51,795 nt of DNA from an uncultured Myxococcales bacterium (GTDB lineage: Bacteria; Myxococcota_A; UBA9042): assembly GCA_903869075.1 (NCBI GenBank), contig CAIPXZ010000327.1, forward strand, positions 1 through 51,795. Reading direction: 5' to 3'. Positions within the stretch are counted from its first letter, which is position 1. Every line of letters begins with the position of its first letter. Position numbers and translations under genes: made by a program. Shown piece by piece: positions 12,171 to 49,948 of the stretch. The notes under the pieces are model-generated. The model ran no database searches. It was not told the origin of the DNA and worked only from the letters and a program-made list of their open reading frames with translations.

Positions 12171-12385
12171 GGCGAATGGTCCAGGGCCCACGGGCCGGGC
12201 CGGGAGCGTAGGACGCGTCAACCGCCCGCGCAAGGCGACGTGGCGAAAAAGCCACGGTAGCAAATGGCGGAAAATACATCGTGCTTGACGCCCCGAAAAC
12301 CCCGCGGCAGACTGAAAATCGTGGGCAGCATTCGCGTGGGGCGAATGCGCAAATCGCGATGCCAAAGTGCATTGGCTGGCACGCC

Positions 12386-12396
12386 GGGGGGGGGGG
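12386..12396. repeat. G11 homopolymer tract in the topB / HD-GYP divergent intergenic region
   Basis: Eleven consecutive G read directly (..cacgccGGGGGGGGGGGccggcg..), 133 nt upstream of the regulator ATG. Confidence 0.9.
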
Positions 12397-12528
12397 CCGG
12401 CGACGCGTCTTCGTCCAAGAATTGGCGTCTTTTTTGTGCAGAATCCGCAGCGCCTTGATTGGCATCCGACCGTGCGTGCGGCCGGCGTGCCGCGCTGGGT
12501 GTCGCGGTCGGAATCGCGAGGGGGCCGG

Positions 12529-13602: not shown

Positions 13603-13797
13603 CTAGGCGTCCAGGCTCACGCAGGCGTCCACCGGGCAGACTTCAGCGCACTGCGGCTTGGGGTTAAAACCCACGCATTCCGTGCACTTGACCGGGTCGA
13701 TGACGAAAAAGTCGCTGCCCTCGCTGATCGCGTGGTTCGGGCACTCGGGCTCGCAGGCGCCACAGCTGTTGCAGTCGTCGGTAATCTTGAAAGCCAT
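13603..13797 (-). CDS. 2[4Fe-4S] ferredoxin (Alvin/YfhL-type spacing), last gene of the nuo operon
   Basis: 64 aa. Motifs [12 protein letters not shown] (CxxCxxCxxxCP) and [18 protein letters not shown] (CxxCx8CxxxCP). GGAGGA lies upstream of the ATG. It sits ~35 nt after the nuoN stop on the same strand. Confidence 0.9.
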
Positions 13798-13832
13798 CAC
13801 ATCCTCCGAAAGAAATCAAAATGCCCTGGCGC

Positions 13833-15263
13833 TCACTGCCCCAGGGTCTGCAGCCATACGACGGCGCTGGCACGCACCGCTTCGTAGACCGTTGGCACGA
13901 CGCCGAGCAGCATGGACGCCGCCGTCGTCACCAACAGCGTGCCGCTGAGCAGCGCGCCGGGCTTGAGCGGCACGGCGCCGTCCGCCGGCGCTTCGATGTA
14001 CATCTGGCGGACGATCCGCAGGTAGTAGTACAGCGAAATGGTTGAATTCACTGCGGCAACGCCGACGAGCCAGTGGTAGCCAGCCTGCGCCGTCACCGAA
14101 AACAGCAGGAATTTGCCGACAAAGCCCGACAGCGGCGGGATGCCGGCGAGGCCGAAGAGACCGAGCATCATCGCCAGCGCCAAGAGCGGATTGAGCTGCG
14201 AAAGCCCACGATAATCGGTGATTTGCGTGCTGCCGGTCTGTTGGTTGTGCAAGATAATCACAGCGAAAACCGAGAGGTTGGTCACGGCGTAGACAAGCAG
14301 GTAAAACACCATCGCCGCCGCGCCGACGCTGCCGGCCCCGAGAAAGCCGAGCAGCAGGTAGCCGGCTTGCGAAATCGCTGAAAACGCCATGAACCGCAGG
14401 ATGTTGCGCTGGACGATGGCGACCAGGTTGCCCAGCGTCATTGTCGCCGTGGCCAGCAGCGCGATGGCGAAGCTGGCGTCGTGCAGGAACGGCCGGAACA
14501 CGTGGAACGCCACGAGCAGCAGCACCGCCAGGCCCGCGGCCTTGGACGCCACCGACAGCCACGCCGTCACCGGCGGCGGCGCGCCCTGGTAGACCTCCGG
14601 CGCCCACATGTGGAACGGCACGAGCGTCAGCTTGAAGCCCACGCCGGCGACGACGAGCGCCGCGGCAAACAGCGTCGTGCGGTCGGCGTGCAGCAGCGCC
14701 GGCATGGCGTCCAGGCGCATGGTGCCGGTCAAGCCGTACAGCAGGCCGAAACCGTAGAGCAGCAGCGCCGACGCCAGCGCGCCGATGACCATGTACTTCA
14801 GCCCCGCCTCGCCGCCCAGCGCGTCGCGCCGCCACGCCGCCAGCAGGAACAGCGGGATGGTCGCCAGCTCCAGCGCCACGTACAGCGTGATGAGATCGCG
14901 GGTCGACGCCAGCAGCAGCATGCCGGACAGGTTGAACAGCAGGATCGTCAGGAATTCCCCAGGGCTATGCAGCTTGCGCAGCTCCGGCGCGGCGCTCGCC
15001 AGCACGCCCGACGTCAGCGCGACGGTCAGCAACGCCGCGACGAGGAACGTCAGCTTGAACCACCACGCAAGGCCGTCCATCGCGAAGCGACCGCCCAGCA
15101 GCACGCCGTGGTCGGGCGTCCCCAGCAGCGCCAGCCCCGCGCCGGCGATGCCGGCCATGGCCAGCGGCACCAGCAGGTCGCGCTGCTTGTCGGTCAGGAA
15201 CAGGTCGAGCACGAGCAGCAGGAAGCCCGTGGCGACGACGATGAGTTCTGGCAGCATCAGCAT
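13833..15263 (-). CDS. nuoN: NADH-quinone oxidoreductase (complex I) subunit N
   Basis: 476-aa polytopic antiporter-like protein, third in the conserved L-M-N order, 12 nt after nuoM. Confidence 0.9.
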   Translation of the reverse strand: MLMLPELIVVATGFLLLVLDLFLTDKQRDLLVPLAMAGIAGAGLALLGTPDHGVLLGGRFAMDGLAWWFKLTFLVAALLTVALTSGVLASAAPELRKLHSPGEFLTILLFNLSGMLLLASTRDLITLYVALELATIPLFLLAAWRRDALGGEAGLKYMVIGALASALLLYGFGLLYGLTGTMRLDAMPALLHADRTTLFAAALVVAGVGFKLTLVPFHMWAPEVYQGAPPPVTAWLSVASKAAGLAVLLLVAFHVFRPFLHDASFAIALLATATMTLGNLVAIVQRNILRFMAFSAISQAGYLLLGFLGAGSVGAAAMVFYLLVYAVTNLSVFAVIILHNQQTGSTQITDYRGLSQLNPLLALAMMLGLFGLAGIPPLSGFVGKFLLFSVTAQAGYHWLVGVAAVNSTISLYYYLRIVRQMYIEAPADGAVPLKPGALLSGTLLVTTAASMLLGVVPTVYEAVRASAVVWLQTLGQ

Positions 15264-15275
15264 GGCGCGCGGTCC

Positions 15276-16823
15276 TTACACGTGCCCCGCGACCGCAAGT
15301 CCGGTCGCGTGCAGGCGGTTCACAAACGGCAGGAGCGCGCTCTCGATCAAGTCGATGAGCAAGCCCGGCACCAGGCCAACGACGGCGAGCGTCACCACGA
15401 GGATGCCGGTCGACAGCTTCTCGGTGAGCGTGGCGTCAGTGAGCTGGTCAAAATGGTGGTCGGTAATCGGCCCCTGGAAGACCTTGGCGAGGCCGCGCAG
15501 CACATAGACGGCGGTCACGACGATCGACAGCGTGGCGATGACGGTCAGCGCGCGGGTGGCGAGCGGGTCCGACCAGGCGTTGCCGAAGAAGCCGCCCATG
15601 AAGACGTGCGACTCAGCGACGAAGCCGGCGAAGCCGGGCAAGCCGAGCGATGCCATGCCGGCGATGTAAAAGCAGACCGCGAGCCACGGCATCACTTTGG
15701 CCAAGCCGCCCATGTCCGGGATGATGCGCGTGTGCGTGCGGCCGTAGACCATGCCGATGAGCGCGAAGAACAGGCCGGTCATGACGCCGTGGCTGAACAT
15801 CTGCAGGACGGCGCCCTTGAAGCCCATCAAGTTCAAGCTGGCGACGCCGAAGAGCACGAAGCCACAGTGGCTGACCGAGGAATACGCCGTGAAGAACTTG
15901 AGGTCGGTCTGCTTGATGGCGCCGAACGCGCCGTAGAGGATGTTGATTGTCGTCAGCGCCATGAAGAAGAGGCCCCAATACTGGGCGCCTTCAGGCAGCA
16001 GGTACACGCCGATGCGCAGCGCGCCGTAGCCGCCGAGCTTCATCAGCACACCGGCGTGCAGCATGGACACCGCCGTCGGCGCGGACGCATGGCCATCGGG
16101 CGACCAGGTGTGAAACGGGTACAGCGCGCCAAGCACGCCGAAACCGATGAAAATCAGCGGGAAAACCCAGCGCTGCATCTCGACCGGATAGTGGTGCTGG
16201 GCGAGCTGCGTCAAATCGAACGTCGTGCCGCCGGCGTAGTGGTACAGCGCCAGCATGCCGACAAGGATGAACGCCGAGCCGACCATGAGCATCAGCGTCA
16301 GCTTCATCGCCGAGTATTCCTTGGGACCGGTGCCCCAGACGCCGATGAGCAGGTACATCGGCAACACCGCGACTTCATAGAACATGAAGAACAGGAACAG
16401 GTCGAAGCTGAGGAACACGCCGAACACGCCGGTGACGAGCACGAGCAGCAGCGCGAAGAATTCCTTGGTGCGCACCACGACGTTCCAGCTTGCCAGGACG
16501 CCGGTGAAGATGATGATCGACGTCAGGATGACCATCGCCATTGTCACGCCGTCGATGCCGACGAGGTAGTCGACGCCGAGCGACTTGAACCACGGGATGC
16601 GCTCGACGAGGTACAGCTTGGTCAGCGTCGCCGTCTTGGCCAACGCGATGTCCGGCGACGCAAGCTGCCAGAACTGCACTGTCGTCACCGCCGTCAGCAC
16701 CAGGTGCGCGCCCGTGCCGAGCAGCGACACCCAGCGGATCAGCTCCGGACGGCGCGCCGGCGCCGCGAGCACGGCCAGCGCGGTCAGAAACGGCAACAAA
16801 ATGAGCCAACTTGCCAGACCCAT
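15276..16823 (-). CDS. nuoM: complex I subunit M
   Basis: 515-aa antiporter-like membrane protein (..WSPDGHASAPTAVSMLHAGVLMKLGGYG..), 3 nt after nuoL. Confidence 0.9.
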   Translation of the reverse strand: MGLASWLILLPFLTALAVLAAPARRPELIRWVSLLGTGAHLVLTAVTTVQFWQLASPDIALAKTATLTKLYLVERIPWFKSLGVDYLVGIDGVTMAMVILTSIIIFTGVLASWNVVVRTKEFFALLLVLVTGVFGVFLSFDLFLFFMFYEVAVLPMYLLIGVWGTGPKEYSAMKLTLMLMVGSAFILVGMLALYHYAGGTTFDLTQLAQHHYPVEMQRWVFPLIFIGFGVLGALYPFHTWSPDGHASAPTAVSMLHAGVLMKLGGYGALRIGVYLLPEGAQYWGLFFMALTTINILYGAFGAIKQTDLKFFTAYSSVSHCGFVLFGVASLNLMGFKGAVLQMFSHGVMTGLFFALIGMVYGRTHTRIIPDMGGLAKVMPWLAVCFYIAGMASLGLPGFAGFVAESHVFMGGFFGNAWSDPLATRALTVIATLSIVVTAVYVLRGLAKVFQGPITDHHFDQLTDATLTEKLSTGILVVTLAVVGLVPGLLIDLIESALLPFVNRLHATGLAVAGHV

Positions 16824-16826
16824 GAG

Positions 16827-18812
16827 CTAATTGCCTCCCGACTTCAGCACGCCCCAGAGCACCACGACCGCGGCGATCGCCCCGGAAACCAGCCACGAGC
16901 CGTAGGTCTGCACCTGGCCGGTCTGCAGCTTGCCGAGCAGCAGGCCCGCGGTGCGCGTGAACCAGCCGCTCAAGTTGACGGCGCCGTCGACGATGTGGCG
17001 GTCAAACCAGGCGATCGGCGCGGCGACGAAGCGGAAGATGAGGCTGTGGGTGACGTAGAGGTAGAGTTCGTCGAAGTAGAATTTGGCCTTGATTGTCGTG
17101 TAGATGCGGCCGAGCTTGGCGACAAGGGCGTTGGCGCGGTCGGGGGCGCCGCCGTACAGCAGCCAGGCGAGGCCGATGCCGGCGAGCGCGAGGACGGTGG
17201 ACGGGATCGCGACGGCGAGGTCGATGCCCTCGTGCTCCGCCGGGCTGCCGGGCAGCTGGACCCACTCGGGGATCGGGATGAAGCCGGCGCCGATGCTCAG
17301 CACGCCAAGGAACGCCATCGGCCCGAGCATGATCCACGGCGACTCGTGCGCGTGGTGCGCGTGCTCGCTGCGGGCGTCGCCCCAGAAGGTCACGAAATAA
17401 ATGCGGAACATGTAGAACGCCGTCATGCCGGCGACCAGCAGCCCGACGCCGAAGACGACGGTGTGGCCCGAGTGCAACGCCGCGGCGAGGATCTCGTCCT
17501 TGGAGAAAAAGCCCGCGAGCGGGTAGATGCCGGCGATGGCCAGCGTGGCGATGAGAAACAGCGCGTGCGTCACCGGCATGTGCTTGCGCAGGCCGCCCAT
17601 GTGCCAGATATCATTGGAATGTACAGCGTGGATGACCGAGCCGGCGCCGAGGAACAGCAGCGCCTTGAAGAACGCGTGGGTGAACAGGTGGAACATCGCC
17701 GCGGAGTAGCCCAGCGGATGGGCGAACGAGGCGACGCCGAGCGCGAACATCATGTAGCCCAGCTGCGACAGCGTGGAGAACGCGAGCACGCGTTTGATGT
17801 CGTCCTGCGTGCAGCCGATGACAGCGGCGAAAAGGCTTGTGAAGGCGCCGATGCACATGACGACGGTCAGCGCCTCGCCCGAGGTGGCGAAGATCGGGAA
17901 GCAGCGCGCGACCAAGTAGACGCCGGCGACGACCATCGTGGCGGCGTGGATGAGCGCGGAGACCGGCGTCGGCCCTTCCATCGCGTCCGGCAGCCAGATA
18001 TGCAGCGGAAACATGGCGCTTTTGCCGGCGCCGCCGGTGTAGATGAGCACCGCCGCCAGCGTCAGCACGCCGACGCCGAGGAAGTGCACGTTCAGCCCGG
18101 ACAGCTGCGCGAGCACGTCCGGGCGCGTGAGGAAGGCGAAATCGAGCGGCTGCTGACCGGCGACGCTGACAGCGGGCAGCGCGGCGAAGATCTGGCTGGC
18201 GTAGAACCCGAGCACGAGGATGCCGAGGAAGAAGCCGAGGTCGGCGAAGCGCGTGACGATAAAGGCTTTCTTGGAGGCGGAGACCGCCGACGGCTTCTCG
18301 AAGTAAAAGCCGATGAGGAAGAACGAGCTGGCGCCGACCAGCTCCCAGCACACGTACATCTGCACGAGGTTGGGCGCCAGCACCAGGCCCAACATGCTGA
18401 ACGTAAACAGGTTCAGGAACGCGAAGTAGCGGGCGTAACCCGGTTCGCCGTGCATGTAGCCGGTCGAATAGAGGTGCACGAGCGTCGAGACCGTCGTCAC
18501 AACCACCAGCAGCATCACGGAAATCGGGTCCAGCAGCGTGCCGATCGCGATGCCGAAGCCATCCTGGAAGTGCAGCCACATCGCCGACCACGGAACCAGC
18601 GACGGCAGCGGCTGGCCGTGCGGCACCAGGTGCAGGAAATCCCACGCCAGCAGCCAGGACAGCCCGGCGGACGTCGCCACCGCCAGCGTCGCCACCGCGC
18701 CCGCGAGGCGCTCCGAGACCGGCCGCAGCACCAAGCCAACCAGCAGGAATGACAGCAGCGGAATGGCCGGAATCAGCCAGGCGTGGGTCAGGATGAAGGA
18801 GAGCGGCTGCAT
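16827..18812 (-). CDS. nuoL: complex I subunit L
   Basis: 661-aa antiporter-like protein (..LPDAMEGPTPVSALIHAATMVVAGVYL..) with the long C-terminal extension typical of NuoL. Confidence 0.9.
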   Translation of the reverse strand: MQPLSFILTHAWLIPAIPLLSFLLVGLVLRPVSERLAGAVATLAVATSAGLSWLLAWDFLHLVPHGQPLPSLVPWSAMWLHFQDGFGIAIGTLLDPISVMLLVVVTTVSTLVHLYSTGYMHGEPGYARYFAFLNLFTFSMLGLVLAPNLVQMYVCWELVGASSFFLIGFYFEKPSAVSASKKAFIVTRFADLGFFLGILVLGFYASQIFAALPAVSVAGQQPLDFAFLTRPDVLAQLSGLNVHFLGVGVLTLAAVLIYTGGAGKSAMFPLHIWLPDAMEGPTPVSALIHAATMVVAGVYLVARCFPIFATSGEALTVVMCIGAFTSLFAAVIGCTQDDIKRVLAFSTLSQLGYMMFALGVASFAHPLGYSAAMFHLFTHAFFKALLFLGAGSVIHAVHSNDIWHMGGLRKHMPVTHALFLIATLAIAGIYPLAGFFSKDEILAAALHSGHTVVFGVGLLVAGMTAFYMFRIYFVTFWGDARSEHAHHAHESPWIMLGPMAFLGVLSIGAGFIPIPEWVQLPGSPAEHEGIDLAVAIPSTVLALAGIGLAWLLYGGAPDRANALVAKLGRIYTTIKAKFYFDELYLYVTHSLIFRFVAAPIAWFDRHIVDGAVNLSGWFTRTAGLLLGKLQTGQVQTYGSWLVSGAIAAVVVLWGVLKSGGN

Positions 18813-18815
18813 GGT

Positions 18816-19166
18816 TCAGTCCTTCAGGGCGTCCAGGCGGGTGACGTCGACGGTGCGACGCTCGGCGTACATCGCCACGAAGATTGCCATGCCGACGACG
18901 ACTTCCGCCGCGGCGACCGCGATGACGAAGATGGTCATGACCGCGCCGTCGAGGCGCTCAGCGCCGCCGAGGTTCGTTGGCGCAAGATAGCGATTGAACA
19001 GGACAAAATTGACGGCCGCGGCGTTCAGGCACAGCTCCAGGGACATCAGCACGCCGACGGCGTTGCGCCGCGTCAACATGCCGTAGATGCCAATGGAAAA
19101 CAGCGCGGACGTCAGCACGAGCCAGTGCGTGAGCGTGGGCGCGTGGTTGGCGAGGAAATCACCCAT
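18816..19166 (-). CDS. nuoK: complex I subunit K
   Basis: 116 aa from ATG 19166 (MGDFLANHAPTLTHWLVLTSALFSIGIYGMLTRRNAV..LELCLNAA), with 3 TM segments. It overlaps the nuoJ stop by 8 nt. Confidence 0.85.
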   Translation of the reverse strand: MGDFLANHAPTLTHWLVLTSALFSIGIYGMLTRRNAVGVLMSLELCLNAAAVNFVLFNRYLAPTNLGGAERLDGAVMTIFVIAVAAAEVVVGMAIFVAMYAERRTVDVTRLDALKD

Positions 19167-19707
19167 GGTGCACCTCCGACTTGACGAGCGCCGCCGGCTT
19201 GCGGGCGATGACGATGCCGCCAATCATCGCCGCCAACAGCAGCAGCGAGACGACTTCAAACGGCAGCGCGTAGCCGTTTTCACCGGTATCCAGCAGCGCG
19301 CGGCCAATCGCCGCGACGTCATTCTTGGGCAGCGCCGTCAGCGCGCGGTTGGCAAAAACCGGCGCGGTCATCATGCAGTACGAGAGGCCAAAGAACGTCA
19401 GCGCCACCGCGCCGCCCAGCAGCTGCCGCCCGCGCGTCGGGTGGTCCTCCAGCAGCTCGGTCGTGCGCGTCAGCATCACCGCGAACACAAGCAGCACGAC
19501 GATGCCGCCGACGTACACGAGCACCTGCACGCCCGCGAGGAACGGCGAATCCAGCAGCAGGTACAGCCCGGCGCTCGCCGCCAGCACACCCATCAGCGAC
19601 ACCGCCGCGCGCAGGATGCGCCGGCCAGTCACGACCGACCACGCCAGCGTCAGCGAGATCGCCGCCAGCAGGTAAAAGATCAGCGTCGGCAGGGCGTTAG
19701 CCAGCAT
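19159..19707 (-). CDS. nuoJ: complex I subunit J
   Basis: 182 aa from ATG 19707 (MLANALPTLIFYLLAAISL..VQVLVYVGGIVVLLVFAVML). It overlaps the nuoI stop by 11 nt. Confidence 0.85.
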   Translation of the reverse strand: MLANALPTLIFYLLAAISLTLAWSVVTGRRILRAAVSLMGVLAASAGLYLLLDSPFLAGVQVLVYVGGIVVLLVFAVMLTRTTELLEDHPTRGRQLLGGAVALTFFGLSYCMMTAPVFANRALTALPKNDVAAIGRALLDTGENGYALPFEVVSLLLLAAMIGGIVIARKPAALVKSEVHHG

Positions 19708-20461
19708 CTTCAGCCTCCCCAGCCGGCGCCGCCGCGGCCGCGGCTTTCTTGGCCAAGCGCGCCACCCGCGCCGCCTCACGCGCGGCTTTCTCCGCGATCT
19801 TCTTGGCCTTTTGCTTTTCGATCAGCGCCTCGATCACCGCGTGGCCGCCGTACGGGTCGCGCGGATCCATCGCCGCCTTGCGGGCGTCCGGGTCCTCGAT
19901 CTTTTCCAGCACTGACGCCACCGGACCGGCGTACTGGTTCAGCGTGTACGACAGCAGGCGGCGATCGTAGACCGACGACTCGAACGTGCCGTCAAAGCGC
20001 AGCACACCGAACGGGCAGACCATCACGCAGGTGTTGCAGAACGTGCAGCTGTCCAGGCGCCAGACGAACGAATCGAGCTCTTTTTTGCTCACCGCCGGCT
20101 TCTCGCGGCCGGTGATGATGATGCTGACGTTCGGGCAGGCTTCCTCGCAAATGCGGCACATCGTGCACTTGTGGTAGCCGTTGGCGTCGTGGTTGAACGC
20201 GAGCTGGGCGCGGAAGCGGTCGGGCAGCTTCAGCGTCTCGCGGTTCTCCGGGTATTCCTGCGTCACCACGGTCGACGGGCGCATCAGGTAGCCGACGGTG
20301 ACCTTCATGCCGCTGAACAGCGAGCGGATGCCCTTGAAAACGCCGCCGATGGCGCCGGACGTGTCGATCCATGGCACCGGACCGGCGACGGCGCCGCCCG
20401 TGCCGACGTGCTTTTCCGGCGGTGGCAAGACTTCAGGGACTGCGATCGACTCGTCGGACAT
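19697..20461 (-). CDS. nuoI: complex I subunit I (2x[4Fe-4S]) with N-terminal extension and Lys/Ala-rich C-terminal tail
   Basis: 254 aa from ATG 20461. Motifs CTMCRICEEACP and CTFCNTCVMVCP. The tail reads ..EKQKAKKIAEKAAREAARVARLAKKAAAAAAPAGEAEDAG. Confidence 0.9.
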   Translation of the reverse strand: MSDESIAVPEVLPPPEKHVGTGGAVAGPVPWIDTSGAIGGVFKGIRSLFSGMKVTVGYLMRPSTVVTQEYPENRETLKLPDRFRAQLAFNHDANGYHKCTMCRICEEACPNVSIIITGREKPAVSKKELDSFVWRLDSCTFCNTCVMVCPFGVLRFDGTFESSVYDRRLLSYTLNQYAGPVASVLEKIEDPDARKAAMDPRDPYGGHAVIEALIEKQKAKKIAEKAAREAARVARLAKKAAAAAAPAGEAEDAG

Positions 20462-20468
20462 GACCAAC

Positions 20469-21566
20469 CTACCGCGCGAAAAAGTAGAAGCCCGTCACGA
20501 CGCACGCCGCCGAGACGAAGAGGTTCACGAAGCCAATCGGCAGCAGGATCTTCCACTCCAGCCGCATCAGCTGGTCGACACGCAAGCGCGGGAAAGTCCA
20601 GCGGAACCACATGAGCAAGAAGATGATGGCCGTGGTCTTGAGCGTGAACCACAGCCCGGGCGGCAGCAGGTCCATGACGCCGTTGAACGCCGCGAAGTGG
20701 CCCCCAACTCCGCTTGGGCCAACGTGCAAGGGCATCCAGCCGCCGAAGAACAGCGTTGACGCCATGGCGGCGAGCACGAACATGTTGAGGAATTCCGAGA
20801 GGAAAAAGAACGAGAAGCGCAACCCCGAGTATTCCGTGTGGAAACCGGCGGTCAGCTCGCTCTCGCCTTCGGCCAGGTCAAACGGCGTGCGGTTGATTTC
20901 GGCGGTGCCGGCGATCATGAAGATGGCGAAGGCGACAAGGCCGCAGCCGTGCGCCCGCCAGATCCACCAGCCGGTGTCCTGCGACTGGATGATGCCCGAG
21001 AGCTGCAGCGTGCCGGCGAAGACGACGACAACGAGCAGCGCCAAAGTCGCTGAAACTTCGTAGGAAATAATCTGCGCACCGGCGCGCATGGCGCCCAGCA
21101 GCGACCACTTGTTGTTGGAACTCCAGCCGCCCAGCAGGATGCCCAGCACGCCCAGGCCGCTGACGGCGGTCACGTAGAGCACGCCGATGTTCATGTCCGC
21201 GACTTGCAGCGACGGGCTCATCGGCAGCGCGATCATCACCAGCAGCATGCCGGCAAAGCTGAGCACCGGCGCGAGGATATGCAGCAGCGCGTCGGCGTCG
21301 CGCGGCACCACGTCCTCTTTCATCAGCAGCTTGATGGCGTCGGCGATGGACTGCAGCACGCCGTGCCAGCCCACGCGCATGGGACCGACGCGGCACTGGA
21401 AGTGCGCGGCGATCTTGCGCTCGGCGTAGATCAGCACCAAGCCGGCGACCGTCACGAACGCGGTCACCGCGAGGATGGTCAGCAGCACGTACAGCGCCGC
21501 GGTCCACGGACTGCCCGGCAGCAGTTCACCGGTGCGCTGGGCGATGGTTTTGACTTGCCAGGCCAT
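20469..21566 (-). CDS. nuoH: complex I subunit H
   Basis: 365-aa membrane protein (..YAERKIAAHFQCRVGPMRVGWHGVLQSIADAIKLL.. and FDLAEGESELTAGFHTEYSG). It starts 9 nt after the nuoD stop, so there is no room for nuoE/F/G. Confidence 0.9.
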   Translation of the reverse strand: MAWQVKTIAQRTGELLPGSPWTAALYVLLTILAVTAFVTVAGLVLIYAERKIAAHFQCRVGPMRVGWHGVLQSIADAIKLLMKEDVVPRDADALLHILAPVLSFAGMLLVMIALPMSPSLQVADMNIGVLYVTAVSGLGVLGILLGGWSSNNKWSLLGAMRAGAQIISYEVSATLALLVVVVFAGTLQLSGIIQSQDTGWWIWRAHGCGLVAFAIFMIAGTAEINRTPFDLAEGESELTAGFHTEYSGLRFSFFFLSEFLNMFVLAAMASTLFFGGWMPLHVGPSGVGGHFAAFNGVMDLLPPGLWFTLKTTAIIFLLMWFRWTFPRLRVDQLMRLEWKILLPIGFVNLFVSAACVVTGFYFFAR

Positions 21567-21575
21567 CGGAATTCC

Positions 21576-22736
21576 TCAGCGGTCGATGTCGGGGACGACG
21601 ATGTCGATCGACGACAGCATGGCCACCAGGTCGCCGATGCGCCCGCCGGTCGCCATCTCGCCGATGCACCACAAGTTGTTGAAATTTGGCGTGCGGCAGT
21701 GGATGCGGTACGGCGCTTCCTTGCCGTCGGACACCAGCAGCACGCCGAGGATGCCGCGCGCGGTCTCCAGGTGGCTGTAGTGGATGCCCGCGGGCACCTT
21801 GATCTTCGCCGCCGGCTTGACCATAAAGGTCTTGCCTTCCGGGATGTTGTCGATCAGCTGCTCGATAATGCGGATCGACTGGCGGATCTCTTCCATCCGC
21901 ACCCAGTACCGGTCCCAGCAGTCGCCGTCGGTGCCGACCGGCACGTCAAAGTCCACCTGGCTGTACAGGCCATACGGCTCGGACTTGCGCAGGTCGTGCG
22001 CCACGCCGCTCGCGCGCAGCACCGGACCGGTCGCGCCGAGCGCAATCGCCCGCGCCGCGCTCAGCTTGCCGATGCCGCGCAGGCGTTCCTGGATGATGAC
22101 GTTGCCGGTCAGCAGCGCGTCGTACTCGACAAGCTTGGGCTTCAGGTAATTCAGGAACGCTTTGACATCCTTGACGAACTCCGGGTGGATATCGAACATC
22201 ACGCCGCCGGGCTGGATGTAGTTCATCGTCAGCCGCGCGCCGATCGTCTTCTCGAAGATGTCGCAGATCTGCTCCCGGTCGCGCAGGCCGTAGAAAAACG
22301 GCGTAAATCCGCCGAGATCCATGCCAAACACGCCCCACCACAGCAAGTGGCTCTGGATGCGCTGCAGCTCGCAGACAAGCGTGCGGATCGCCTGGATCCG
22401 CTCGGTGGTCTCCATTTTGGCGGCTTTTTCAACCACCATCGTCACGGCCCAGTTGTTGGCCAGCGCCGACAAATAGTCCATGCGATCAACCAGATGCACG
22501 AACTGGCGGTAGTTGCCATGTTCGCCCATCTTCTCAATGCCGCGGTGGATGTAGCCCAGCACCGGCACGACTTCGCGCACCGTCTCGCCGTCCAGCCGCA
22601 GCACGAGGCGCAGCACGCCGTGCGTCGACGGGTGCTGCGGGCCCATGTTGACGAAATATTCTTCCGTCGACAGCGGGCTGCCGGCGGTGCTCTCGCCGGA
22701 AATGCGCGCCTGGAGGGTGGAAACGGTGACGCTCAT
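21576..22736 (-). CDS. nuoD: complex I subunit D (49-kDa / NdhH-like)
   Basis: 386 aa (..NMGPQHPSTHGVLRLVLRLDGE.., C-terminal ..DIVVPDIDR). 4-nt ATGA overlap with nuoC. Confidence 0.9.
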   Translation of the reverse strand: MSVTVSTLQARISGESTAGSPLSTEEYFVNMGPQHPSTHGVLRLVLRLDGETVREVVPVLGYIHRGIEKMGEHGNYRQFVHLVDRMDYLSALANNWAVTMVVEKAAKMETTERIQAIRTLVCELQRIQSHLLWWGVFGMDLGGFTPFFYGLRDREQICDIFEKTIGARLTMNYIQPGGVMFDIHPEFVKDVKAFLNYLKPKLVEYDALLTGNVIIQERLRGIGKLSAARAIALGATGPVLRASGVAHDLRKSEPYGLYSQVDFDVPVGTDGDCWDRYWVRMEEIRQSIRIIEQLIDNIPEGKTFMVKPAAKIKVPAGIHYSHLETARGILGVLLVSDGKEAPYRIHCRTPNFNNLWCIGEMATGGRIGDLVAMLSSIDIVVPDIDR

Positions 22737-23197
22737 TCGGGCCGCTCCAGCATGAAATCGTCCTCGTAGTCCTTGCGCAGCGGAAAGCCGACCCAGTCGT
22801 CTTCCAGAAACAGCCGCCGCAAGTCCGGGTGACCGTCGTACAAAATACCAAACATGTCGTAGGCTTCGCGCTCAAGCCACTCAGCGATCGGCCAGACCTG
22901 GCTGACCGTCGGCACCACCGGCGCGTCGCGGTCGATGTTCACCGCCAGCAGCAGCCGGTGGCCGTGCGGCACCGACGTCAGCAGGTACAGCAGCTCAAAC
23001 CGGTCCTCTTCCAGCCAATCGACAGCGGTGTGCGTCTCCAGCAGGTCGAACCGCAGGTCCGGGTCGTCGCGCAACTGCGTCGCCAACGCCACGAGCGCGT
23101 CGGCAGCGACGGTCAGCGTCGGCTGGTCGCTCTGCGCGCGCGCCTGCGCGGCCGGGTGCAGCGCCTGGACGGCGGCGATGAGGTTCAGCGCGTCCAT
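22733..23197 (-). CDS. nuoC: complex I subunit C (30-kDa)
   Basis: 154 aa (..WPIAEWLEREAYDMFGILYDGHPDLRRLFL..). Confidence 0.85.
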   Translation of the reverse strand: MDALNLIAAVQALHPAAQARAQSDQPTLTVAADALVALATQLRDDPDLRFDLLETHTAVDWLEEDRFELLYLLTSVPHGHRLLLAVNIDRDAPVVPTVSQVWPIAEWLEREAYDMFGILYDGHPDLRRLFLEDDWVGFPLRKDYEDDFMLERPE

Positions 23198-23198
23198 C

Positions 23199-23873
23199 TC
23201 AAAAATCCTTCAGGTCAGCGGCATAGTGCGCGCCGGCGGCCACCGCATCGGTCATCGTCACGTTGGCATCGTGCGACAGCAAGTCCTGCATTTCCTTGCG
23301 GATATCGTCCAGCGTCATGCCTTCCGGCAGCGCCGCCAGCACCGGCCGCCGCCGCTCGCCCGGGTGACGAATGCTCTCGCCTTCCTTGATCATTTTTTGC
23401 AGCGTCAGCAGGCCGTAGAAGAACGCCTCCGGTCGCGGCGGACAGCCGGGCACGTAGACGTCGACCGGGATGATCTCGTCCGCGCCGCGCACCGTCGTGT
23501 AGCTGTGGTACATGAACGGCCCGCCGCAGATGGCGCAGGAGCCGGTGGCCATGACGTAGCGCGGCTCGGCCATCTGCTCGTACAGCGTGCGCAGCCGCGG
23601 CGCCATGCGCTTGACGATGGTGCCGGCGATGACGAGCAGGTCCGCCTGCCGCGGCGAGGGCCGCGCGACTTCAGCGCCGAAGCGCGCGAGGTCATGCCGC
23701 GCCGCGCCGGTGGCCATCATCACTTCGATGGCGCAGCAGCTTGTGCCAAACGTCAACGGCCACAGGCTGTTGGCGCGGCTCCAGTTGATCAGCTGGTCAA
23801 CGGCGGTCACGAGCACGGAGCCGCCAGGCAGCGGTTCGAGCACGCCGGGCAAATTGTCGGTGATCACACCCAT
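23199..23873 (-). CDS. nuoB: complex I subunit B (N2 cluster subunit)
   Basis: 224 aa from ATG 23873. N2 ligands are present: [30 protein letters not shown]. It overlaps the nuoA stop by 10 nt. Confidence 0.9.
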
Positions 23874-24214
23874 TCGAGCGCTCCTTTGCGCCACGCGTAC
23901 AACAGGCCGACCATCAACATGGCGCCGAACACGCCCGCCTCGATGAGCCCCGTCGTTCCAAACTCGCGCAGCACTACCGCCCACGGGTACAGGAACGCGG
24001 CCTCGACGTCAAACACCAAAAACATCAAACCGAACAGGTAGAAGCCGACGTTGAACTGGATCCACGACGTGCCGATGGTCTTCTCGCCGCATTCGTAGGC
24101 GTCATTCTTGGCGCCGCCGGGATGATGCGGCGCGACGAGCCGGGACAGCCCGAGCCCACCTAGCACCATCACGGCTGAAAAGCCGAGAAAAATCAGGACA
24201 TAGAAGAAATCCAT
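23864..24214 (-). CDS. nuoA: complex I subunit A
   Basis: 116 aa with 3 TM segments (..[40 protein letters not shown]..). The start is only 7 nt downstream of the korB stop. Confidence 0.9.
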
Positions 24215-24221
24215 CGGATCC

Positions 24222-25277
24222 TCACGCTGCCGAGGCTGCCGCTACCTGCGCGCCCAGCAAGCTGATATGGCCCTGCGCGTCTTCCATCCACGCTTCCGAC
24301 CCGCGGAACACGCGCATGAGGTCGCCGCCCTTGGGCGCGTAGTGGTCATCGTACGCTGTCTGCTGCACTTTGCGGAACACGCCGACCGGCACCGGCAGGT
24401 CCGGATGTTCCATGTTTGACAGCAGAAAAGCCAGCGACGAGTCTTCGACCGCGACGTCGTGCACGAGCGCGTTGTCCGGCAGCGGGCTGCCCGGCACGTA
24501 CGCCTCGACCTGCGGCCGGAAGCCGTCGATTGTCACGATGCGGTCCTTGCCGTTGCCGAAAATCAGCGGCTCCTTGTCCTTGAGCGTCACCGTCGTGTCC
24601 GCCTTGACGGCTTTCTCGGTCAGGTGGCTGAAGGTGCCGTCGTTGAAGATCACGCAGTTCAGCAGCACTTCCACAAACGCCGCGCCTTTGTGGTCCGCCG
24701 CCTGCTGCAAGATGTCCGCCATCAGCTGGCCGTCGGTATCGGCAACGCGCGCGGCAAAAGTCGCGCCGGCAGCGATCGCCATGGACAGCGGGCGAATCGG
24801 CGGGTCGATCGAGCCGTACGGCGTCGACTTGGTCTTTTTGCCCTTGCTCGTCGTCGGCGACGCCTGGCCTTTGGTCAGGCCGTAGATCTGGTTGTTGAAC
24901 AGAATCACCTTGATGTTGGGATTGCGGCGGATCATGTGGATGAAGTGGTTGCCGCCGATCGACAGCGCGTCGCCGTCACCGGTCATGACCCACACGCTCA
25001 GGTCGGGGCGCGAGAGCTTCAAGCCGGTGGCGACCGTCATGGCGCGGCCGTGGACGGTGTGAAAGCCGTACGTGCCGACGTAGTACGGCGTGCGCGACGA
25101 GCAGCCGATGCCGGAGATGACGGCGAATTTCTCGCGCGGCAGGTTCATGGTCGGGAACGTGCCGGTCAGCCAGCGCAGGACGCTGTAGCAGCCGCAGCCG
25201 GCGCACCACTTCGGGTCGATGGAACTGAGGAAATCCTGGCGCTTGAGGCCGAGGTTGGCGGTAGGGACGATGGTCAT
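24222..25277 (-). CDS. korB: 2-oxoglutarate(2-oxoacid):ferredoxin oxidoreductase beta subunit (TPP-binding)
   Basis: 351 aa, with WCAGCGCYSV and the TPP motif VMTGDGDALSIGGNHFIH..ILFNNQIYGLTKGQ. Confidence 0.88.
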   Translation of the reverse strand: MTIVPTANLGLKRQDFLSSIDPKWCAGCGCYSVLRWLTGTFPTMNLPREKFAVISGIGCSSRTPYYVGTYGFHTVHGRAMTVATGLKLSRPDLSVWVMTGDGDALSIGGNHFIHMIRRNPNIKVILFNNQIYGLTKGQASPTTSKGKKTKSTPYGSIDPPIRPLSMAIAAGATFAARVADTDGQLMADILQQAADHKGAAFVEVLLNCVIFNDGTFSHLTEKAVKADTTVTLKDKEPLIFGNGKDRIVTIDGFRPQVEAYVPGSPLPDNALVHDVAVEDSSLAFLLSNMEHPDLPVPVGVFRKVQQTAYDDHYAPKGGDLMRVFRGSEAWMEDAQGHISLLGAQVAAASAA

Positions 25278-25322
25278 GACGACGCTCCGTAGGTTCCAGG
25301 CAAAAGGCAGGGTTCAGCTGGG

Positions 25323-27167
25323 CTAGACCAGCGACTCAATCTTGGCTTCGATGTCGTCGGCGCGGAACGGCTGGCCTTCGACCTTGTTGAACTGCACGAC
25401 ATCCACGAGGTATTTGCCGCGCAGGTGGTACGCGAGCTGCCCGGAATTGATCTCCGGCAACAGCACGCGCTTGTACTTCTGCATGAGCGCCTTCAAGTCC
25501 GGCGGCAGCGGGTTCATGTGCCGCAGGTGCGCGCCGGCGACCTTGTGACCGCGCTTGCGCACGTGGCCAATCGCCTGCTCGATGACGCCGCGGGTCGAGC
25601 CCCAGCCGAGCACCAGCAGGTCGGCATCGGCGTCGCCGTAAACTTCCGTCGGCGCGATGTCCTGGGCGATCTTCTCGATTTTCGCCGCGCGCAGATCGGT
25701 CATCCGCTGGTGATTCGCGGGGTTATGGCTGATGTTGCCCGAGCCATCCTCTTTCTCGAGGCCGCCGATGCGGTGCTCCAGCCCCGGCGTGCCGACCGCC
25801 GCCCAAGGCCGCGCCAGCGTCTCCGGGTCGCGCGAGTACGGCTTGAAGCCCTCGGGATTCGTAACCAAATGCGTCTTCAGCACCGGCAGCTCGTCCAGCT
25901 CCGGCACGCGCCAGACTTCCGAACCGTTGCCGAGATAGCCGTCGGTCAGCAGCACCACCGGCGTCATGTACTTGAGCGCGATGCGCGCCGCCTCAATCGT
26001 CGCGTCAAAGCAATCGCGCGGCGAGGACGCCGCCACAACCGCCAGCGGCGACTCACCGTGCCGGCCAAACAGCGCCTGCAGCAGATCGGACTGCTCGGTC
26101 TTGGTCGGCAAACCGGTCGACGGACCGGCGCGCTGCACGTCGACGATGACAAGCGGCAGCTCCGTCATCACCGCGAGGTTGATGAACTCCGCCTTGAGCG
26201 AAAAGCCCGGTCCCGAGGTCGACGTCGCCGCCAGCGCGCCGCCAAACGCCGCGCCAATCGCCGAGCCGATGCCGGCAATCTCGTCCTCAGCCTGCAGCAC
26301 GTTGCAGAATTCCTTATTCTGCTGGAGCACTTGCATGATGTCCGTCGCCGGCGTGATTGGGTAGCTGCCCAAGAAAAGCGGCAGGTTCGCGCGCTTCGCC
26401 GCCGCCAGCAGGCCATACGCTGTCGCCGTGTTGCCCGACACTTGGCGGTACACGCCGGCGCCGCGCGGCGTCGCCTTGGCGCGCGTTGCGTACGTGTGGT
26501 TCTGCAGCTTGCCGTCCTTGCCGTACTGCAAGCCCGCCTCGAACGCCCGCTGGTTGGCCTCCAGCACGTCCGGCTTGTTGCTGAATTTCTTGATGATCCA
26601 GCGCTGCGTCTGCTTGATGTCGCGGTTGAACAGCCAGTAGCTCAAGCCCAGCGCGAAGAAGTTCTTGCAGCGGTCAACCTGCTTGGCGGAAAGGCCGCCG
26701 GCGCCGAGCGCTTCCTGCGTCGCCTTGACCATCGGCACACGCAAAAGCTTGAACGTGTTCAGTTCCCCGGTCTCGAGCGGGTCCGCAGCGTAGCCGGCTT
26801 TCTCGATGTTGCGGGCGATGAACGCGTCCTCGTTGACGATGACGGTCGAACCGGACTTGAGAAACGGCATGTTGGCGCGCAACGCCGCCGGGTTCATGGC
26901 GACCAAGAAGTCGAGGCTGTCGCCCGGCGTGAACACGTCGCTGGTGCCAAAGCACACCTGGAAGCCCGAGACGCCGCCGATGGTGCCGGCGGGCGCGCGA
27001 ATCTCCGCGGGATAGTCCGGCAAAGTCGCGACGTCGTCGCCCATCAGCGCGGAAGTACTGGTAAACTGGTCGCCGACCAACTGCATGCCGTCGCCCGAGT
27101 CACCCGCAAAGCGGATCACCACGGTATCGACTTCTTCTACAGTACGCGCGAGCTGATGCGATGTCAT
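25323..27167 (-). CDS. korA: 2-oxoglutarate(2-oxoacid):ferredoxin oxidoreductase alpha subunit (gamma+alpha fusion)
   Basis: 614 aa from ATG 27167, with a GGAGGA RBS 6 nt upstream. The gamma-like N-terminus VVIRFAGDSGDGMQLVGDQF is followed by an alpha-like SGNTATAYGLLAA..GSYPITPATDI. This is the two-subunit KorAB architecture, with no delta/ferredoxin domain. Confidence 0.88.
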   Translation of the reverse strand: MTSHQLARTVEEVDTVVIRFAGDSGDGMQLVGDQFTSTSALMGDDVATLPDYPAEIRAPAGTIGGVSGFQVCFGTSDVFTPGDSLDFLVAMNPAALRANMPFLKSGSTVIVNEDAFIARNIEKAGYAADPLETGELNTFKLLRVPMVKATQEALGAGGLSAKQVDRCKNFFALGLSYWLFNRDIKQTQRWIIKKFSNKPDVLEANQRAFEAGLQYGKDGKLQNHTYATRAKATPRGAGVYRQVSGNTATAYGLLAAAKRANLPLFLGSYPITPATDIMQVLQQNKEFCNVLQAEDEIAGIGSAIGAAFGGALAATSTSGPGFSLKAEFINLAVMTELPLVIVDVQRAGPSTGLPTKTEQSDLLQALFGRHGESPLAVVAASSPRDCFDATIEAARIALKYMTPVVLLTDGYLGNGSEVWRVPELDELPVLKTHLVTNPEGFKPYSRDPETLARPWAAVGTPGLEHRIGGLEKEDGSGNISHNPANHQRMTDLRAAKIEKIAQDIAPTEVYGDADADLLVLGWGSTRGVIEQAIGHVRKRGHKVAGAHLRHMNPLPPDLKALMQKYKRVLLPEINSGQLAYHLRGKYLVDVVQFNKVEGQPFRADDIEAKIESLV

Positions 27168-27255
27168 AGGTGTTCCTCCGTCCTGGCCAACCGCCTTTCC
27201 GGGGCGGTCATTCACACGCCGAATGAGGCGCCCGATCGCGTCCAAGGTCAATGCC

Positions 27256-27268
27256 GTCTGTCACAGAC
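27256..27268. promoter_or_regulatory. candidate operator: perfect 6-1-6 palindrome upstream of korA
   Basis: GTCTGT-C-ACAGAC, ~90 nt upstream of the korA ATG. It is followed by two TTGTCA hexamers (27290-27295 and 27301-27306, 11-bp spacing). Confidence 0.25.
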
Positions 27269-27455
27269 GTGTCTAGCAAAGGCCGCCTATTGTCATGGGT
27301 TTGTCAGGCGAGAGGGGCGTCCGTTGGTGACGCCGCAACCGCCCCGGCAGCGGCTGCCGTGGAGGGGCGCAAAATAGTGGCACAATTCGGTCCGGATTGG
27401 CGGCGGTCCCGCGCCGGCGTTGGCGACGCGGCCGCTTGCGCAGCGCGCGGGGGCG

Positions 27456-27980
27456 CTACAGCTTGGGCGTGTCGATCTCGTCCCACGCGCGATCCGGCTC
27501 ATCGTCGCCCGGAACGCGCGCCAGCAATTCGGCAACCAGGCGCTGGTGCTCCAGTTCCTCGGTCCGCAGCTCTACGAACAGCAGGCGGACGTCCTTGTCC
27601 TTGACGTGAATCAAGGCTTCATCAAAAAAATCATAGGCTTTGCGCTCCGCTGCCAGCGCGATTTCCAGCGCCTGGCGCGTGCTCATGAAGTTGCGCGGCT
27701 GGCTCGTCTCCGGCGCCTCGATGTCGATCACCGCGTCCGGATTCACCCGCGACGGCGCGTCGGCGTACAGCGCACGGCGGCGGGTCTGCAGCACTTCGCG
27801 GTGCTTTTGCTCGTTGACGACCATCGCGTCGAAGAACGTCGCGGCGTCGCCCTCATACCGCTTGCCCACGAGCTCGGAGAAATCGGCGTAGCGCTGCCGC
27901 GCCTCTTCCTCAATCAAAATGGCATAATCCAGCGCGTCTTGCAGGGTCAGGTGGGCAAAATCGATGGTCTGAAAGGACAT
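27456..27980 (-). CDS. ferritin-like / rubrerythrin-like diiron four-helix-bundle protein
   Basis: 174 aa from ATG 27980 (AGGAG RBS). Two ExxH pairs (NEQKH, EELEH) plus Glu-bearing helices (LIEEEARQRY, LAAERKAYDFF). Confidence 0.7.
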   Translation of the reverse strand: MSFQTIDFAHLTLQDALDYAILIEEEARQRYADFSELVGKRYEGDAATFFDAMVVNEQKHREVLQTRRRALYADAPSRVNPDAVIDIEAPETSQPRNFMSTRQALEIALAAERKAYDFFDEALIHVKDKDVRLLFVELRTEELEHQRLVAELLARVPGDDEPDRAWDEIDTPKL

Positions 27981-34424: not shown

Positions 34425-34501
34425 CACAAACTCCGTTCCAGGGGCCCAATCGAGTCTCGTAAGGCGCGGCAATCCCACGCAAAGCCGACGCAGCGCGCGG
34501 G

Positions 34502-34530
34502 ATCATACGAGCGCAAACGGGGATGCGCAA
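34502..34530 (-). promoter_or_regulatory. candidate sigma70-type promoter (and dyad) for lipoprotein A
   Basis: Minus strand reads TTGCGC (34530-34525), a 17-nt spacer, then TATGAT (34507-34502), ~75 nt upstream of ATG 34424. The dyad GCGCA-N8-TGCGC (34511-34528) overlaps the -35 element. Confidence 0.35.
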
Positions 34531-39841: not shown

Positions 39842-39861
39842 GTTGCCGCCTCGCGTCAGAG

Positions 39862-49459: not shown

Positions 49460-49470
49460 TCGGATTTAGC

Positions 49471-49499
49471 TTGGCACGCCGTCGGGCCTCCCCTACACT
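49471..49499 (+). promoter_or_regulatory. candidate sigma70-type promoter for the fdx-cyaY pair
   Basis: TTGGCA (49471-49476), a 17-nt spacer, then TACACT (49494-49499). The RBS-like GAGAGGA at 49523-49529 sits 8 nt before ATG 49538. Confidence 0.35.
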
Positions 49500-49537
49500 G
49501 CGCGCGCCGACCGCCTGCGGTCGAGAGGAACCAGCCC

Positions 49538-49942: not shown

Positions 49943-49948
49943 GTCCGC

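Follow-up and report, generated by a model that had tools for sequence, protein, structure and literature searches.

An operon joining a 2-oxoacid:ferredoxin oxidoreductase, a NuoEFG-less complex I and a ferredoxin, conserved in Myxococcota and other bacterial phyla

The electron donor of the bacterial 11-subunit complex I, which consists of NuoABCD and NuoHIJKLMN without NuoE, NuoF and NuoG, has long been an open question. Ferredoxin is the demonstrated donor of cyanobacterial NDH-1, and the Fpo complex of Methanothrix, which works without FpoF, oxidizes ferredoxin while lacking a dedicated input subunit. In Campylobacter and Helicobacter pylori, complex I is unable to use NADH and receives its electrons from 2-oxoglutarate and pyruvate oxidoreductases; the 2-oxoglutarate oxidoreductase (OOR) of Campylobacter is of the four-subunit type and is not encoded in the nuo operon. 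In Thauera aromatica, a two-subunit KorAB and an Alvin-type 2[4Fe-4S] ferredoxin form a known redox couple, in which the ferredoxin is the natural acceptor of the enzyme. Here we analyze a contig of 51,795 nucleotides (nt) from an uncultured Myxococcales bacterium (CAIPXZ010000327.1, assembly GCA_903869075.1; hereafter the window), in which korAB, eleven nuo genes and a ferredoxin gene (fdx) form a single row, and we show that this arrangement recurs in several phyla.

Moparthi and Hagerhall (2011, PMC3144371) looked explicitly for a partner of the 11-subunit enzyme and reported “no designated partner protein”, and later work only lists candidate donors (PMC11238625). 11-subunit complexes have been suggested to take their electrons from ferredoxin (PMC3903129, PMC3362086), among them the NDH-1 of Chlorobi and Ignavibacterium, which has the same nuoABCDHIJKLMN order without nuoEFG as the window (PMC3362086). 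In Desulfitobacterium, which carries an 11-subunit complex with ferredoxin as a hypothesized donor, rotenone blocks pyruvate- and lactate-dependent growth (PMC11238625). The Zixibacteria genome RBG-1 contains a cluster encoding an 11-subunit complex I (“alternative complex I”), pyruvate:ferredoxin oxidoreductase (PFOR), 2-oxoglutarate:ferredoxin oxidoreductase (OGOR), NfnAB and Mvh/Hdr, for which re-oxidation of ferredoxin and generation of a proton-motive force (pmf) have been proposed (Castelle et al. 2013, PMC3903129). NUO-2 of Nitrospina is a different variant, which contains NuoEFG (PMC3578206).

The 14 genes of the window occupy positions 13603–27167 of the minus strand in the order korA, korB, nuoABCD, nuoHIJKLMN, fdx, as an earlier note made from the bare sequence had described. 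The map of open reading frames (ORFs), the translations and the Pfam and NCBIfam profiles agree on this, and the family of every gene is backed by profile matches (Table 1). The eleven core genes nuoA–D and nuoH–N are all present and contiguous, with no extra ORFs within the operon. Spacing is tight and matches what the note had reported: the largest gap, between korA and korB, measures 45 nt, korB and nuoA are 7 nt apart, nuoN and fdx 35 nt, and four gene pairs overlap (nuoA/B, nuoC/D, nuoI/J and nuoJ/K).

The NADH-oxidizing module is missing from its canonical place, since nuoH begins 9 nt past the nuoD stop and leaves no nuoE, nuoF or nuoG between them. Among the remaining ORFs of the 51.8-kb window, Pfam detected none of the NuoE, NuoF and NuoG families, and the NuoF motif is likewise absent from the window. 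The Fe-S ligands of the Q-module are intact, as had been claimed: NuoB retains those of cluster N2 (CC...C...GCPP) and NuoI has two CxxCxxCxxxCP motifs. In NuoD, the positions of the Thermus Nqo4 quinone ligands His38 and Tyr87 are occupied by His39 and Tyr88. With the N2, N6a and N6b ligands and the NuoD His/Tyr pair present, the Q-module matches the quinone-reducing type rather than a [NiFe] hydrogenase; NuoD contains no NiFe hydrogenase cysteine motifs, and hydrogenase subunits score much lower against it (6CFW_L, 170 bits). The best solved relative of NuoD is NdhH (6HUM_H) at 319 bits, a small margin over the 305 bits of Thermus Nqo4, and the best NuoI-type structure matches are NdhI chains.

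We examined the korB–nuoA junction, whose adjacency the earlier note had proposed to look for in other genomes, among the 80 closest NuoD relatives (one genome per species), onto which the window proteins were mapped; 67 of these loci had enough upstream sequence to be evaluated. The closest are metagenome-assembled genomes (MAGs) of freshwater “uncultured Myxococcales”, with NuoD 92–97% identical and DNA 84–89% identical over 13–19 kb. NuoD abuts NuoH at the gene level in 80/80 relatives, which are a clade of NuoEFG-less operons. In 47 of the 67 evaluable loci, nuoA was immediately preceded by korA-korB on its own strand, with a korB–nuoA spacer not exceeding 94 nt in 40 of them and of −1 to 20 nt in many Bdellovibrionota. 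This linkage was found in Myxococcota (7/7), Bdellovibrionota/Oligoflexia (15/16), Zixibacteria (4/4), Ignavibacteriales (1/1), Flavobacteriaceae (17/17), Saprospiraceae (1/1) and other Bacteroidota. The Flavobacteriaceae include the cultured carriers Lutimonas vermicola, L. saemankumensis and L. halocynthiae. As a background control we used 58 generic KorAB loci from a metagenome scan with KorB (KorB 46–55% identical, at least 1 kb of downstream sequence). Only one of them was linked to nuoA, and it was the same Bdellovibrionales sequence already in our sample (Fisher p = 3e-17 against 47/67). That scan returned only these distant KorAB loci and no close relatives that would extend the clade. 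We conclude that the korB–nuoA arrangement is far beyond chance.

KorA is an alpha subunit in which domains III, I and II are fused, and it reaches 652 bits against TIGR03710 (cut-off 483). KorB is a beta subunit with a thiamine pyrophosphate (TPP) site and one [4Fe-4S] cluster; it scores 255 bits against TIGR02177, just below the cut-off of 262, and in an alignment its residues C25, C28, C59 and C208 fall on the [4Fe-4S] cysteines of the Sulfolobus enzyme (5B46_B). Pfam detects no Fer4 domain in KorA or KorB, in agreement with the earlier note, and the pair has the architecture of a two-subunit 2-oxoacid:ferredoxin oxidoreductase (OFOR) with no delta or ferredoxin domain. Among solved structures, KorA scores best against the Magnetococcus OGOR (6N2N_A, 256 bits), and KorB matches 6N2N_B and 5B46_B. 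As to the substrate class, KorA reaches only a subfamily-level NCBIfam model, all equivalog-level models staying below their cut-offs, and a separate PFOR adjoins the operon; we infer that the substrate of KorAB is most likely 2-oxoglutarate. A comparison of the linked KorA and KorB with 53–79 unlinked homologues revealed no insertion or residue that goes with the linkage, and the linked enzymes resemble ordinary reducers of ferredoxin rather than a module dedicated to docking.

The last gene of the operon encodes a YfhL/Alvin-type 2[4Fe-4S] ferredoxin with the motifs CxxCxxCxxxCP and CxxCx8CxxxCP, the second of which carries an insertion. Its best solved relatives are 2FGO (Pseudomonas aeruginosa), 1BLU (Allochromatium vinosum) and 1RGV (Thauera aromatica), and 3EUN and 2ZVS are also among the top structure hits. 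The protein is strongly acidic (11 Asp/Glu against 3 Lys/Arg) and ends just past the last cluster motif, without the C-terminal helical extension (64 against about 80 amino acids, aa). We compared length and insertions between the window gene (13603–13797) and those of loci L012, L023, L041 and L059: the Myxococcales ferredoxins measure 63–68 aa and lack the C-terminal helix, the homologues encoded in the Bdellovibrionota and Zixibacteria clusters keep the extension (94–98 aa), and in those of Flavobacteriaceae an acidic stretch of about 45 aa is inserted between the cluster motifs. A ferredoxin of the YfhL/Alvin family is encoded in 29 of the 47 linked clusters. In Myxococcales and some Bdellovibrionota the gene comes after nuoN, in Zixibacteria, Ignavibacteriales and two further loci (L041 and L058) it stands ahead of korA, and in Flavobacteriaceae it lies divergently, together with the PFOR gene; it is still found beside nuo in three relatives without korAB (L007, L009 and L031). 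That fdx shifts its place yet stays near the reductases and the pump is as expected of a shared diffusible carrier.

Taken together, these results make it probable, in our view, that the operon encodes a ferredoxin-dependent respiratory module, in which KorAB and PFOR would reduce a diffusible ferredoxin that in turn feeds the 11-subunit complex and the quinone pool, with proton pumping. KorAB would oxidize a 2-oxoacid, most likely 2-oxoglutarate, to the acyl-CoA, and the neighboring PFOR would do likewise with pyruvate. Both enzymes would transfer electrons one at a time to the acidic ferredoxin of the YfhL/Alvin type, a small protein that would hand them to the exposed NuoI end of the Q-module. 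From there, electrons would travel through N6a and N6b (NuoI) and N2 (NuoB) to quinone at the NuoD/NuoH site, and its reduction would drive proton pumping by the intact antiporter-like subunits NuoL, NuoM and NuoN. The functional coupling of donor enzyme, carrier and NuoEFG-less pump is well supported by the synteny across phyla, the correlated divergence of KorA and NuoD (see below) and the intact catalytic motifs. The earlier note had pictured a hard-wired chain from 2-oxoglutarate through ferredoxin to quinone; the synteny bears out the coupling, but the picture is too narrow, given the PFOR in the neighborhood and the shifting position of fdx.

Several points weigh against this proposal. 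NuoEFG encoded elsewhere in the genome, of which the window covers 51.8 kb, could dock on the complex. The subfamily-level match of KorA leaves its substrate unproven. No ferredoxin is found within the fetched flanks of 18 of the 47 linked loci, and 20 of the 67 related Nuo11 loci have only unrelated genes and no korAB upstream, so that KorAB is not an obligatory partner. Lastly, 2-oxoacid:ferredoxin oxidoreductases and complex I are both reversible, and the direction of electron flow therefore cannot be read from the sequence.

This reversibility means that the linkage alone would equally fit a flow in which the pmf pushes electrons from quinol to ferredoxin, with KorAB and PFOR acting as 2-oxoglutarate and pyruvate synthases in CO2 or acetate assimilation or in a reductive branch of the tricarboxylic acid (TCA) cycle. 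The best solved relative of KorA, the Magnetococcus OGOR 6N2N, is a reductive-TCA enzyme, which would speak for such a role. Chlorobi, moreover, carry an 11-subunit complex together with 2-ketoglutarate:ferredoxin oxidoreductase (KFOR) and PFOR (PMC3362086), and reverse flow from quinol to ferredoxin through a modified complex I has been proposed for Nitrospina (PMC3578206). However, Castelle et al. (2013, PMC3903129) detected no citrate lyase in the cluster-bearing Zixibacteria. Likewise, no ATP-citrate lyase or other marker of autotrophy turned up when the remaining ORFs of the window were scanned with Pfam, and the carriers belong, by their names, to heterotrophic groups (Flavobacteriaceae, Bdellovibrionota, Myxococcota). 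Uphill reduction of Alvin-type ferredoxins from quinol would also be costly because of their low-potential cluster, and we regard operation in this direction as unlikely.

The relatives without korAB belong to Planctomycetota, Victivallales/Lentisphaerae, SAR324, Verrucomicrobiota and Hydrogenedentes. Their existence would be compatible with mere co-regulation, in which the genes are grouped for a common need at low oxygen and the electrons come from NuoEFG encoded elsewhere, a hydrogenase, flavodoxin or F420. A nearby rubrerythrin gene would fit an oxygen-stress regulon of this kind, and 11-subunit complexes have been proposed as docking platforms for several donors (Moparthi and Hagerhall, PMC3144371). 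Grouping for regulation alone sits poorly, however, with the enrichment over the control loci, with the tight gene spacing, with the persistence of the linkage in two distant KorA clades, and with a ferredoxin gene that is linked to both korAB and nuo. Nor is an alternative donor gene conserved where korAB is missing: upstream of nuoA in ten such relatives we found no candidate, only genes for a histidine kinase, NnrS, SpoIIE, RpiB, MoxR and a tRNA synthetase. The NuoF-type N3 motif (ESCGRCMPCR) occurs in the flanks of a single locus of the 80 (L019, Lentisphaerae), about 2.3 kb from the locus start and on the opposite strand. We consider co-regulation without electron transfer between the partners very unlikely.

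Two loci show other arrangements. In a Verrucomicrobiia locus (L057), a second nuoJ-nuoK-nuoL-like set (30–41% identity) directly follows the 11-gene operon. In the metagenome contig Ga0187809_10000009 (L147), a distant korAB is divergent from a cluster of nuoA-, nuoB-, nuoH- and nuoI-like genes (33–50% identity); this is a different KorAB association, with a complex I-like or hydrogenase-like module.

Pairwise distances of KorA and NuoD in the linked loci correlate strongly (r = 0.96 overall and 0.91 within the Myxococcota/Bdellovibrionota/Zixibacteria group), which fits a cassette inherited as a unit, as it would any two vertically inherited genes. In a neighbor-joining tree of KorA, the linked enzymes form two separate clades with many unlinked KorAs between them, one comprising Myxococcota, Bdellovibrionota, Zixibacteria and Ignavibacteriales and the other Bacteroidota. 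Mean KorA identity between the two linked clades is 51%, no higher than the 52–55% to unlinked KorAs. Linked and unlinked lineages intermingle in the NuoD tree, which implies losses or rearrangements. These patterns, obtained with a simple tree method, are suggestive of a korAB-nuo linkage that either arose twice or is old and was often lost.

Two subunits of the Q-module carry extensions. NuoB continues for about 55 aa past its canonical end (window 23199–23370), in a stretch that opens with a basic patch and contains the motif PGxRRKPV...; it is conserved in the Myxococcota/Bdellovibrionota/Zixibacteria/Planctomycetota subclade, with or without korAB, and may form part of the surface that the missing N-module leaves exposed. 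NuoI extends for about 100 aa after its second cluster motif (window 19697–20010, the C-terminal third of nuoI). The segment YDRRLLxYxLNxYAGP...EPRxxYxGP in this extension is common to Myxococcota, Bdellovibrionota, Zixibacteria, Planctomycetota and Victivallales, again with or without korAB, the Lys/Ala-rich tail is limited to Myxococcales, and Bacteroidota relatives have only a 37-aa tail.

Such clade-specific extensions could form an interface for KorAB itself, which would then dock as a substitute input module at the NuoEFG site of the Q-module, with ferredoxin as a bound wire or absent, and make up a 2-oxoglutarate:quinone oxidoreductase supercomplex. The position of korAB immediately 5' of nuoA, with a tight junction here and in many Bdellovibrionota, the lack of a ferredoxin domain in KorAB and the linked loci with no ferredoxin gene nearby would all suit direct docking. 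Yet both extensions are equally present in korAB-less relatives, and neither KorA nor KorB differs from its unlinked homologues by any insertion or residue specific to the linkage. The fdx gene, in addition, remains beside nuo in the three korAB-less loci named above, and the PFOR in the neighborhood argues for a shared soluble carrier. Docking of KorAB on the Q-module is in our judgment quite unlikely.

In a broader form of the idea, a physically associated 2-oxoacid:quinone oxidoreductase supercomplex, belonging to one clade of the ancestral-type 11-subunit complex I, would have had its genetically designated electron input recruited into the nuo operon at least twice independently, with the NuoB and NuoI extensions replacing the interface to the N-module. 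One recruitment would have taken place in the Myxococcota/Bdellovibrionota/Zixibacteria lineage and one in Bacteroidota, the input consisting of KorAB, a dedicated ferredoxin and usually PFOR. This is rather speculative and we would bet against it; if true, it would be the first “input module” of a bacterial Nuo11 built from a TPP enzyme.

The diffusible-ferredoxin module that we prefer would have consequences of its own. The 2-oxoglutarate and pyruvate steps of central metabolism would enter the quinone pool through ferredoxin instead of NADH. With a potential of about −450 mV, ferredoxin offers about 130 mV more driving force than NADH, which, if the module works as proposed, would suffice for full proton pumping even where the acceptor is low-potential menaquinone, in hypoxic water and sediment. 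The MAG names of the carriers point to stratified lakes, sulfidic caves and sediments, hypoxic habitats in which the added driving force would matter for an enzyme using menaquinone. The operon names a specific donor chain for one large clade of 11-subunit enzymes. The linkage is present in 47 species of several phyla, and because cultured Lutimonas are among them, the proposal is directly testable by genetics and membrane biochemistry.

The surroundings of the operon include features that the earlier note had missed, namely a rubrerythrin gene and a divergent PFOR gene (Table 1). About 170 nt upstream of korA are nearly invariant between the window and four related Myxococcales loci (L001, L002, L004 and L033), the remainder of the 288-nt spacer not being conserved; nhmmer matched this leader only in these five sequences, and it is absent from more distant relatives. 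The leader holds TGACAA direct repeats at intervals of about 11 nt, together with a TGTGACAGAC element. Within part of it, most variation falls on every third base, as in a short coding leader, but a 1-nt indel in L004 disrupts the frame with korA. The region resembles a promoter, operator or leader of the unit from korA to fdx. Scans for promoter- and terminator-like sites found none at any operon junction, the consensus hits all falling inside coding sequence; with 19 hits against 13.2 ± 4.0 in shuffled sequence there is no excess, and the scan carries little weight for transcript structure. The genes from korA through fdx are probably one transcript, which would start from the conserved leader. 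No Rfam family matched anywhere in the window.

Table 1. Features of the operon and its upstream neighborhood (positions in the window)
Feature	Position	Strand	Details
fdx, last operon gene	13603..13797	-	64 aa; NF033683 YfhL, 90 bits (cut-off 86)
nuoN	13833..15263	-	TIGR01770, 376 bits (cut-off 333)
nuoM	15276..16823	-	Pfam Proton_antipo_M, E = 5e-64
nuoL (antiporter-like, 661 aa)	16827..18812	-	NF005141, 652 bits (cut-off 556); Proton_antipo_N, Proton_antipo_M
nuoK	18816..19166	-	Pfam Oxidored_q2, E = 8e-24
nuoJ	19159..19707	-	Pfam Oxidored_q3, E = 2e-32
nuoI (clusters N6a, N6b)	19697..20461	-	Fer4 families, NuoI models; two CxxCxxCxxxCP
nuoH	20469..21566	-	Pfam NADHdh, E = 6e-114; NF004741, 338 bits (cut-off 305)
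nuoD (quinone site)	21576..22736	-	Pfam Complex1_49kDa, E = 9e-91
nuoC	22733..23197	-	Pfam Complex1_30kDa, E = 9e-43; TIGR01961, 132 bits
nuoB (cluster N2)	23199..23873	-	NF005012, 227 bits
nuoA	23864..24214	-	Pfam Oxidored_q4, E = 2e-34
korB	24222..25277	-	351 aa; Pfam TPP_enzyme_C, TIGR02177
korA	25323..27167	-	614 aa; ATG + GGAGGA Shine-Dalgarno; TIGR03710, Pfam POR, POR_N, PFOR_II
Putative leader/promoter region, conserved, with TGACAA direct repeats	27138..27312	-	directly upstream of korA
Rubrerythrin	27456..27980	-	174 aa; Pfam Rubrerythrin, E = 3e-11; 288 nt upstream of korA
PFOR, single-chain/NifJ type	28195..31746	+	1183 aa; POR_N, PFOR_II, POR, EKR, Fer4, TPP_enzyme_C in PFOR-typical order

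Rubrerythrin is encoded beside korA in four Myxococcales loci, on the same strand, and accompanies the cassette in six Bdellovibrionota loci, in five of which it lies divergently upstream of korA and in one (L029) on the same strand downstream of fdx; its presence fits enzymes in need of protection from oxygen. The PFOR gene, which has an ATG start with a GGAGG Shine-Dalgarno sequence, is divergent from the rubrerythrin-korAB-nuo side of the window and adjoins the cassette in Myxococcales loci and in many Flavobacteriaceae loci. A PFOR-type enzyme, either single-chain or split into alpha-gamma and delta-beta genes, is present in many linked clusters. In Zixibacteria, Ignavibacteriales and some Bdellovibrionota, a PFOR-like alpha-gamma fusion of about 650 aa replaces the single-chain enzyme, and in the first two groups it adjoins a gene for a delta-beta fusion of about 540 aa (examples of split enzymes are L023 358–4096, L027, L037, L015 18837–20813 and L041 19152–21152).

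At its 3' end, the operon meets a gene of the response-regulator/HD-GYP type (12367–13587, plus strand), whose stop lies 15 nt from that of fdx, leaving no room for a conventional terminator between them. The window has a G+C content of about 67%. The AT skew of its plus strand is strongly positive (0.23–0.26) across 14000–20000, a region covering nuoI–nuoN, and probably reflects T-rich codon usage in the membrane subunits encoded on the minus strand. Beyond the PFOR gene, two very large Cys-rich proteins with Dictyostelium-type CTDC repeats are encoded on the minus strand (31755–34502 and 35588–40039); long ORFs with high GC3 lie opposite these genes, and simple ORF calling could take them for genes. 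At 49460–50269 (plus strand), a gene with a 2Fe-2S ferredoxin domain is directly followed by a frataxin/CyaY-like gene, and the two may be an Fe-S cluster assembly pair in a 50-kb neighborhood rich in Fe-S enzymes.

Compared with described systems, the locus shares its core with the RBG-1 cluster. Four Zixibacteria loci in our sample (L023, L024, L027 and L036) have a split PFOR followed by fdx-korA-korB-nuoA-N, the same core as in RBG-1, whereas in the window fdx comes last and rubrerythrin and a single-chain PFOR lie upstream. The RBG-1 description concerned one lineage and a large, loose cluster, and it noted neither the korAB-nuo operon nor its recurrence across phyla. The novelty claimed in the earlier note has to be qualified accordingly: the Zixibacteria cluster had been reported (Castelle et al. 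2013, PMC3903129), but in the literature searched, most subscription journals being outside that search, we came across no account of a korAB-nuo operon shared between phyla. The reductive TCA clusters of Riftia and Thioflavicoccus, considered as a precedent, were set aside, as their korABCD genes are linked to Flx-Hdr and not to nuo.

The NDH-1 of cyanobacteria and chloroplasts resembles the window complex in its 11-subunit core without NuoEFG. There, a plant-type 2Fe-2S ferredoxin, which photosystem I reduces, is bound by the extra subunits NdhS, NdhV and NdhO; no counterpart of these is encoded in the operon, which has a 2[4Fe-4S] ferredoxin as candidate carrier and 2-oxoacid oxidoreductases as candidate donor enzymes. 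The NDH-1 equivalog models stay below their cut-offs (NdhH 344 bits against 583, ndhI 53 against 302). The same holds by a wide margin for the FpoC, D, H, I and L models (FpoD 325 bits against 600), and the window contains no FpoF-like gene; the Fpo of Methanothrix is, besides, archaeal and uses methanophenazine. The Campylobacter complex, which the earlier note had counted among the 11-subunit enzymes, in fact keeps a NuoG-like subunit, and two unrelated genes replace nuoE and nuoF (PMC3144371); its donor in Campylobacter jejuni has been named as flavodoxin (PMC4453560). In the window, by contrast, the 9 nt between nuoD and nuoH leave no NuoG-like or substitute genes. Melioribacter has the same 11-gene nuo operon, again with ferredoxin as suggested donor, but linked to a transhydrogenase instead of korAB, and in Ignavibacterium album the KFOR genes (IALB_1501-1502) lie about 120 genes from nuo (IALB_1622-1632), unlike in the window.

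KorAB, for its part, has the two-subunit architecture of the Magnetococcus marinus OGOR (6N2N), the Sulfolobus enzyme StOFOR (5B46) and the Mycobacterium tuberculosis KOR. Matches to these enzymes reach 256 and 187 bits in HMMER, the beta-subunit match covering residues 11–213 only, and none of them has been reported beside a complex I operon. The Thauera ferredoxin (1RGV), among the top structure matches of the window ferredoxin, feeds benzoyl-CoA reductase and not a respiratory complex, and the window protein differs from it by the missing C-terminal helix. The parts of the system, Nuo11, a two-subunit OFOR and an Alvin-type ferredoxin, are known, and it is their conserved fusion at the level of the operon that is new.

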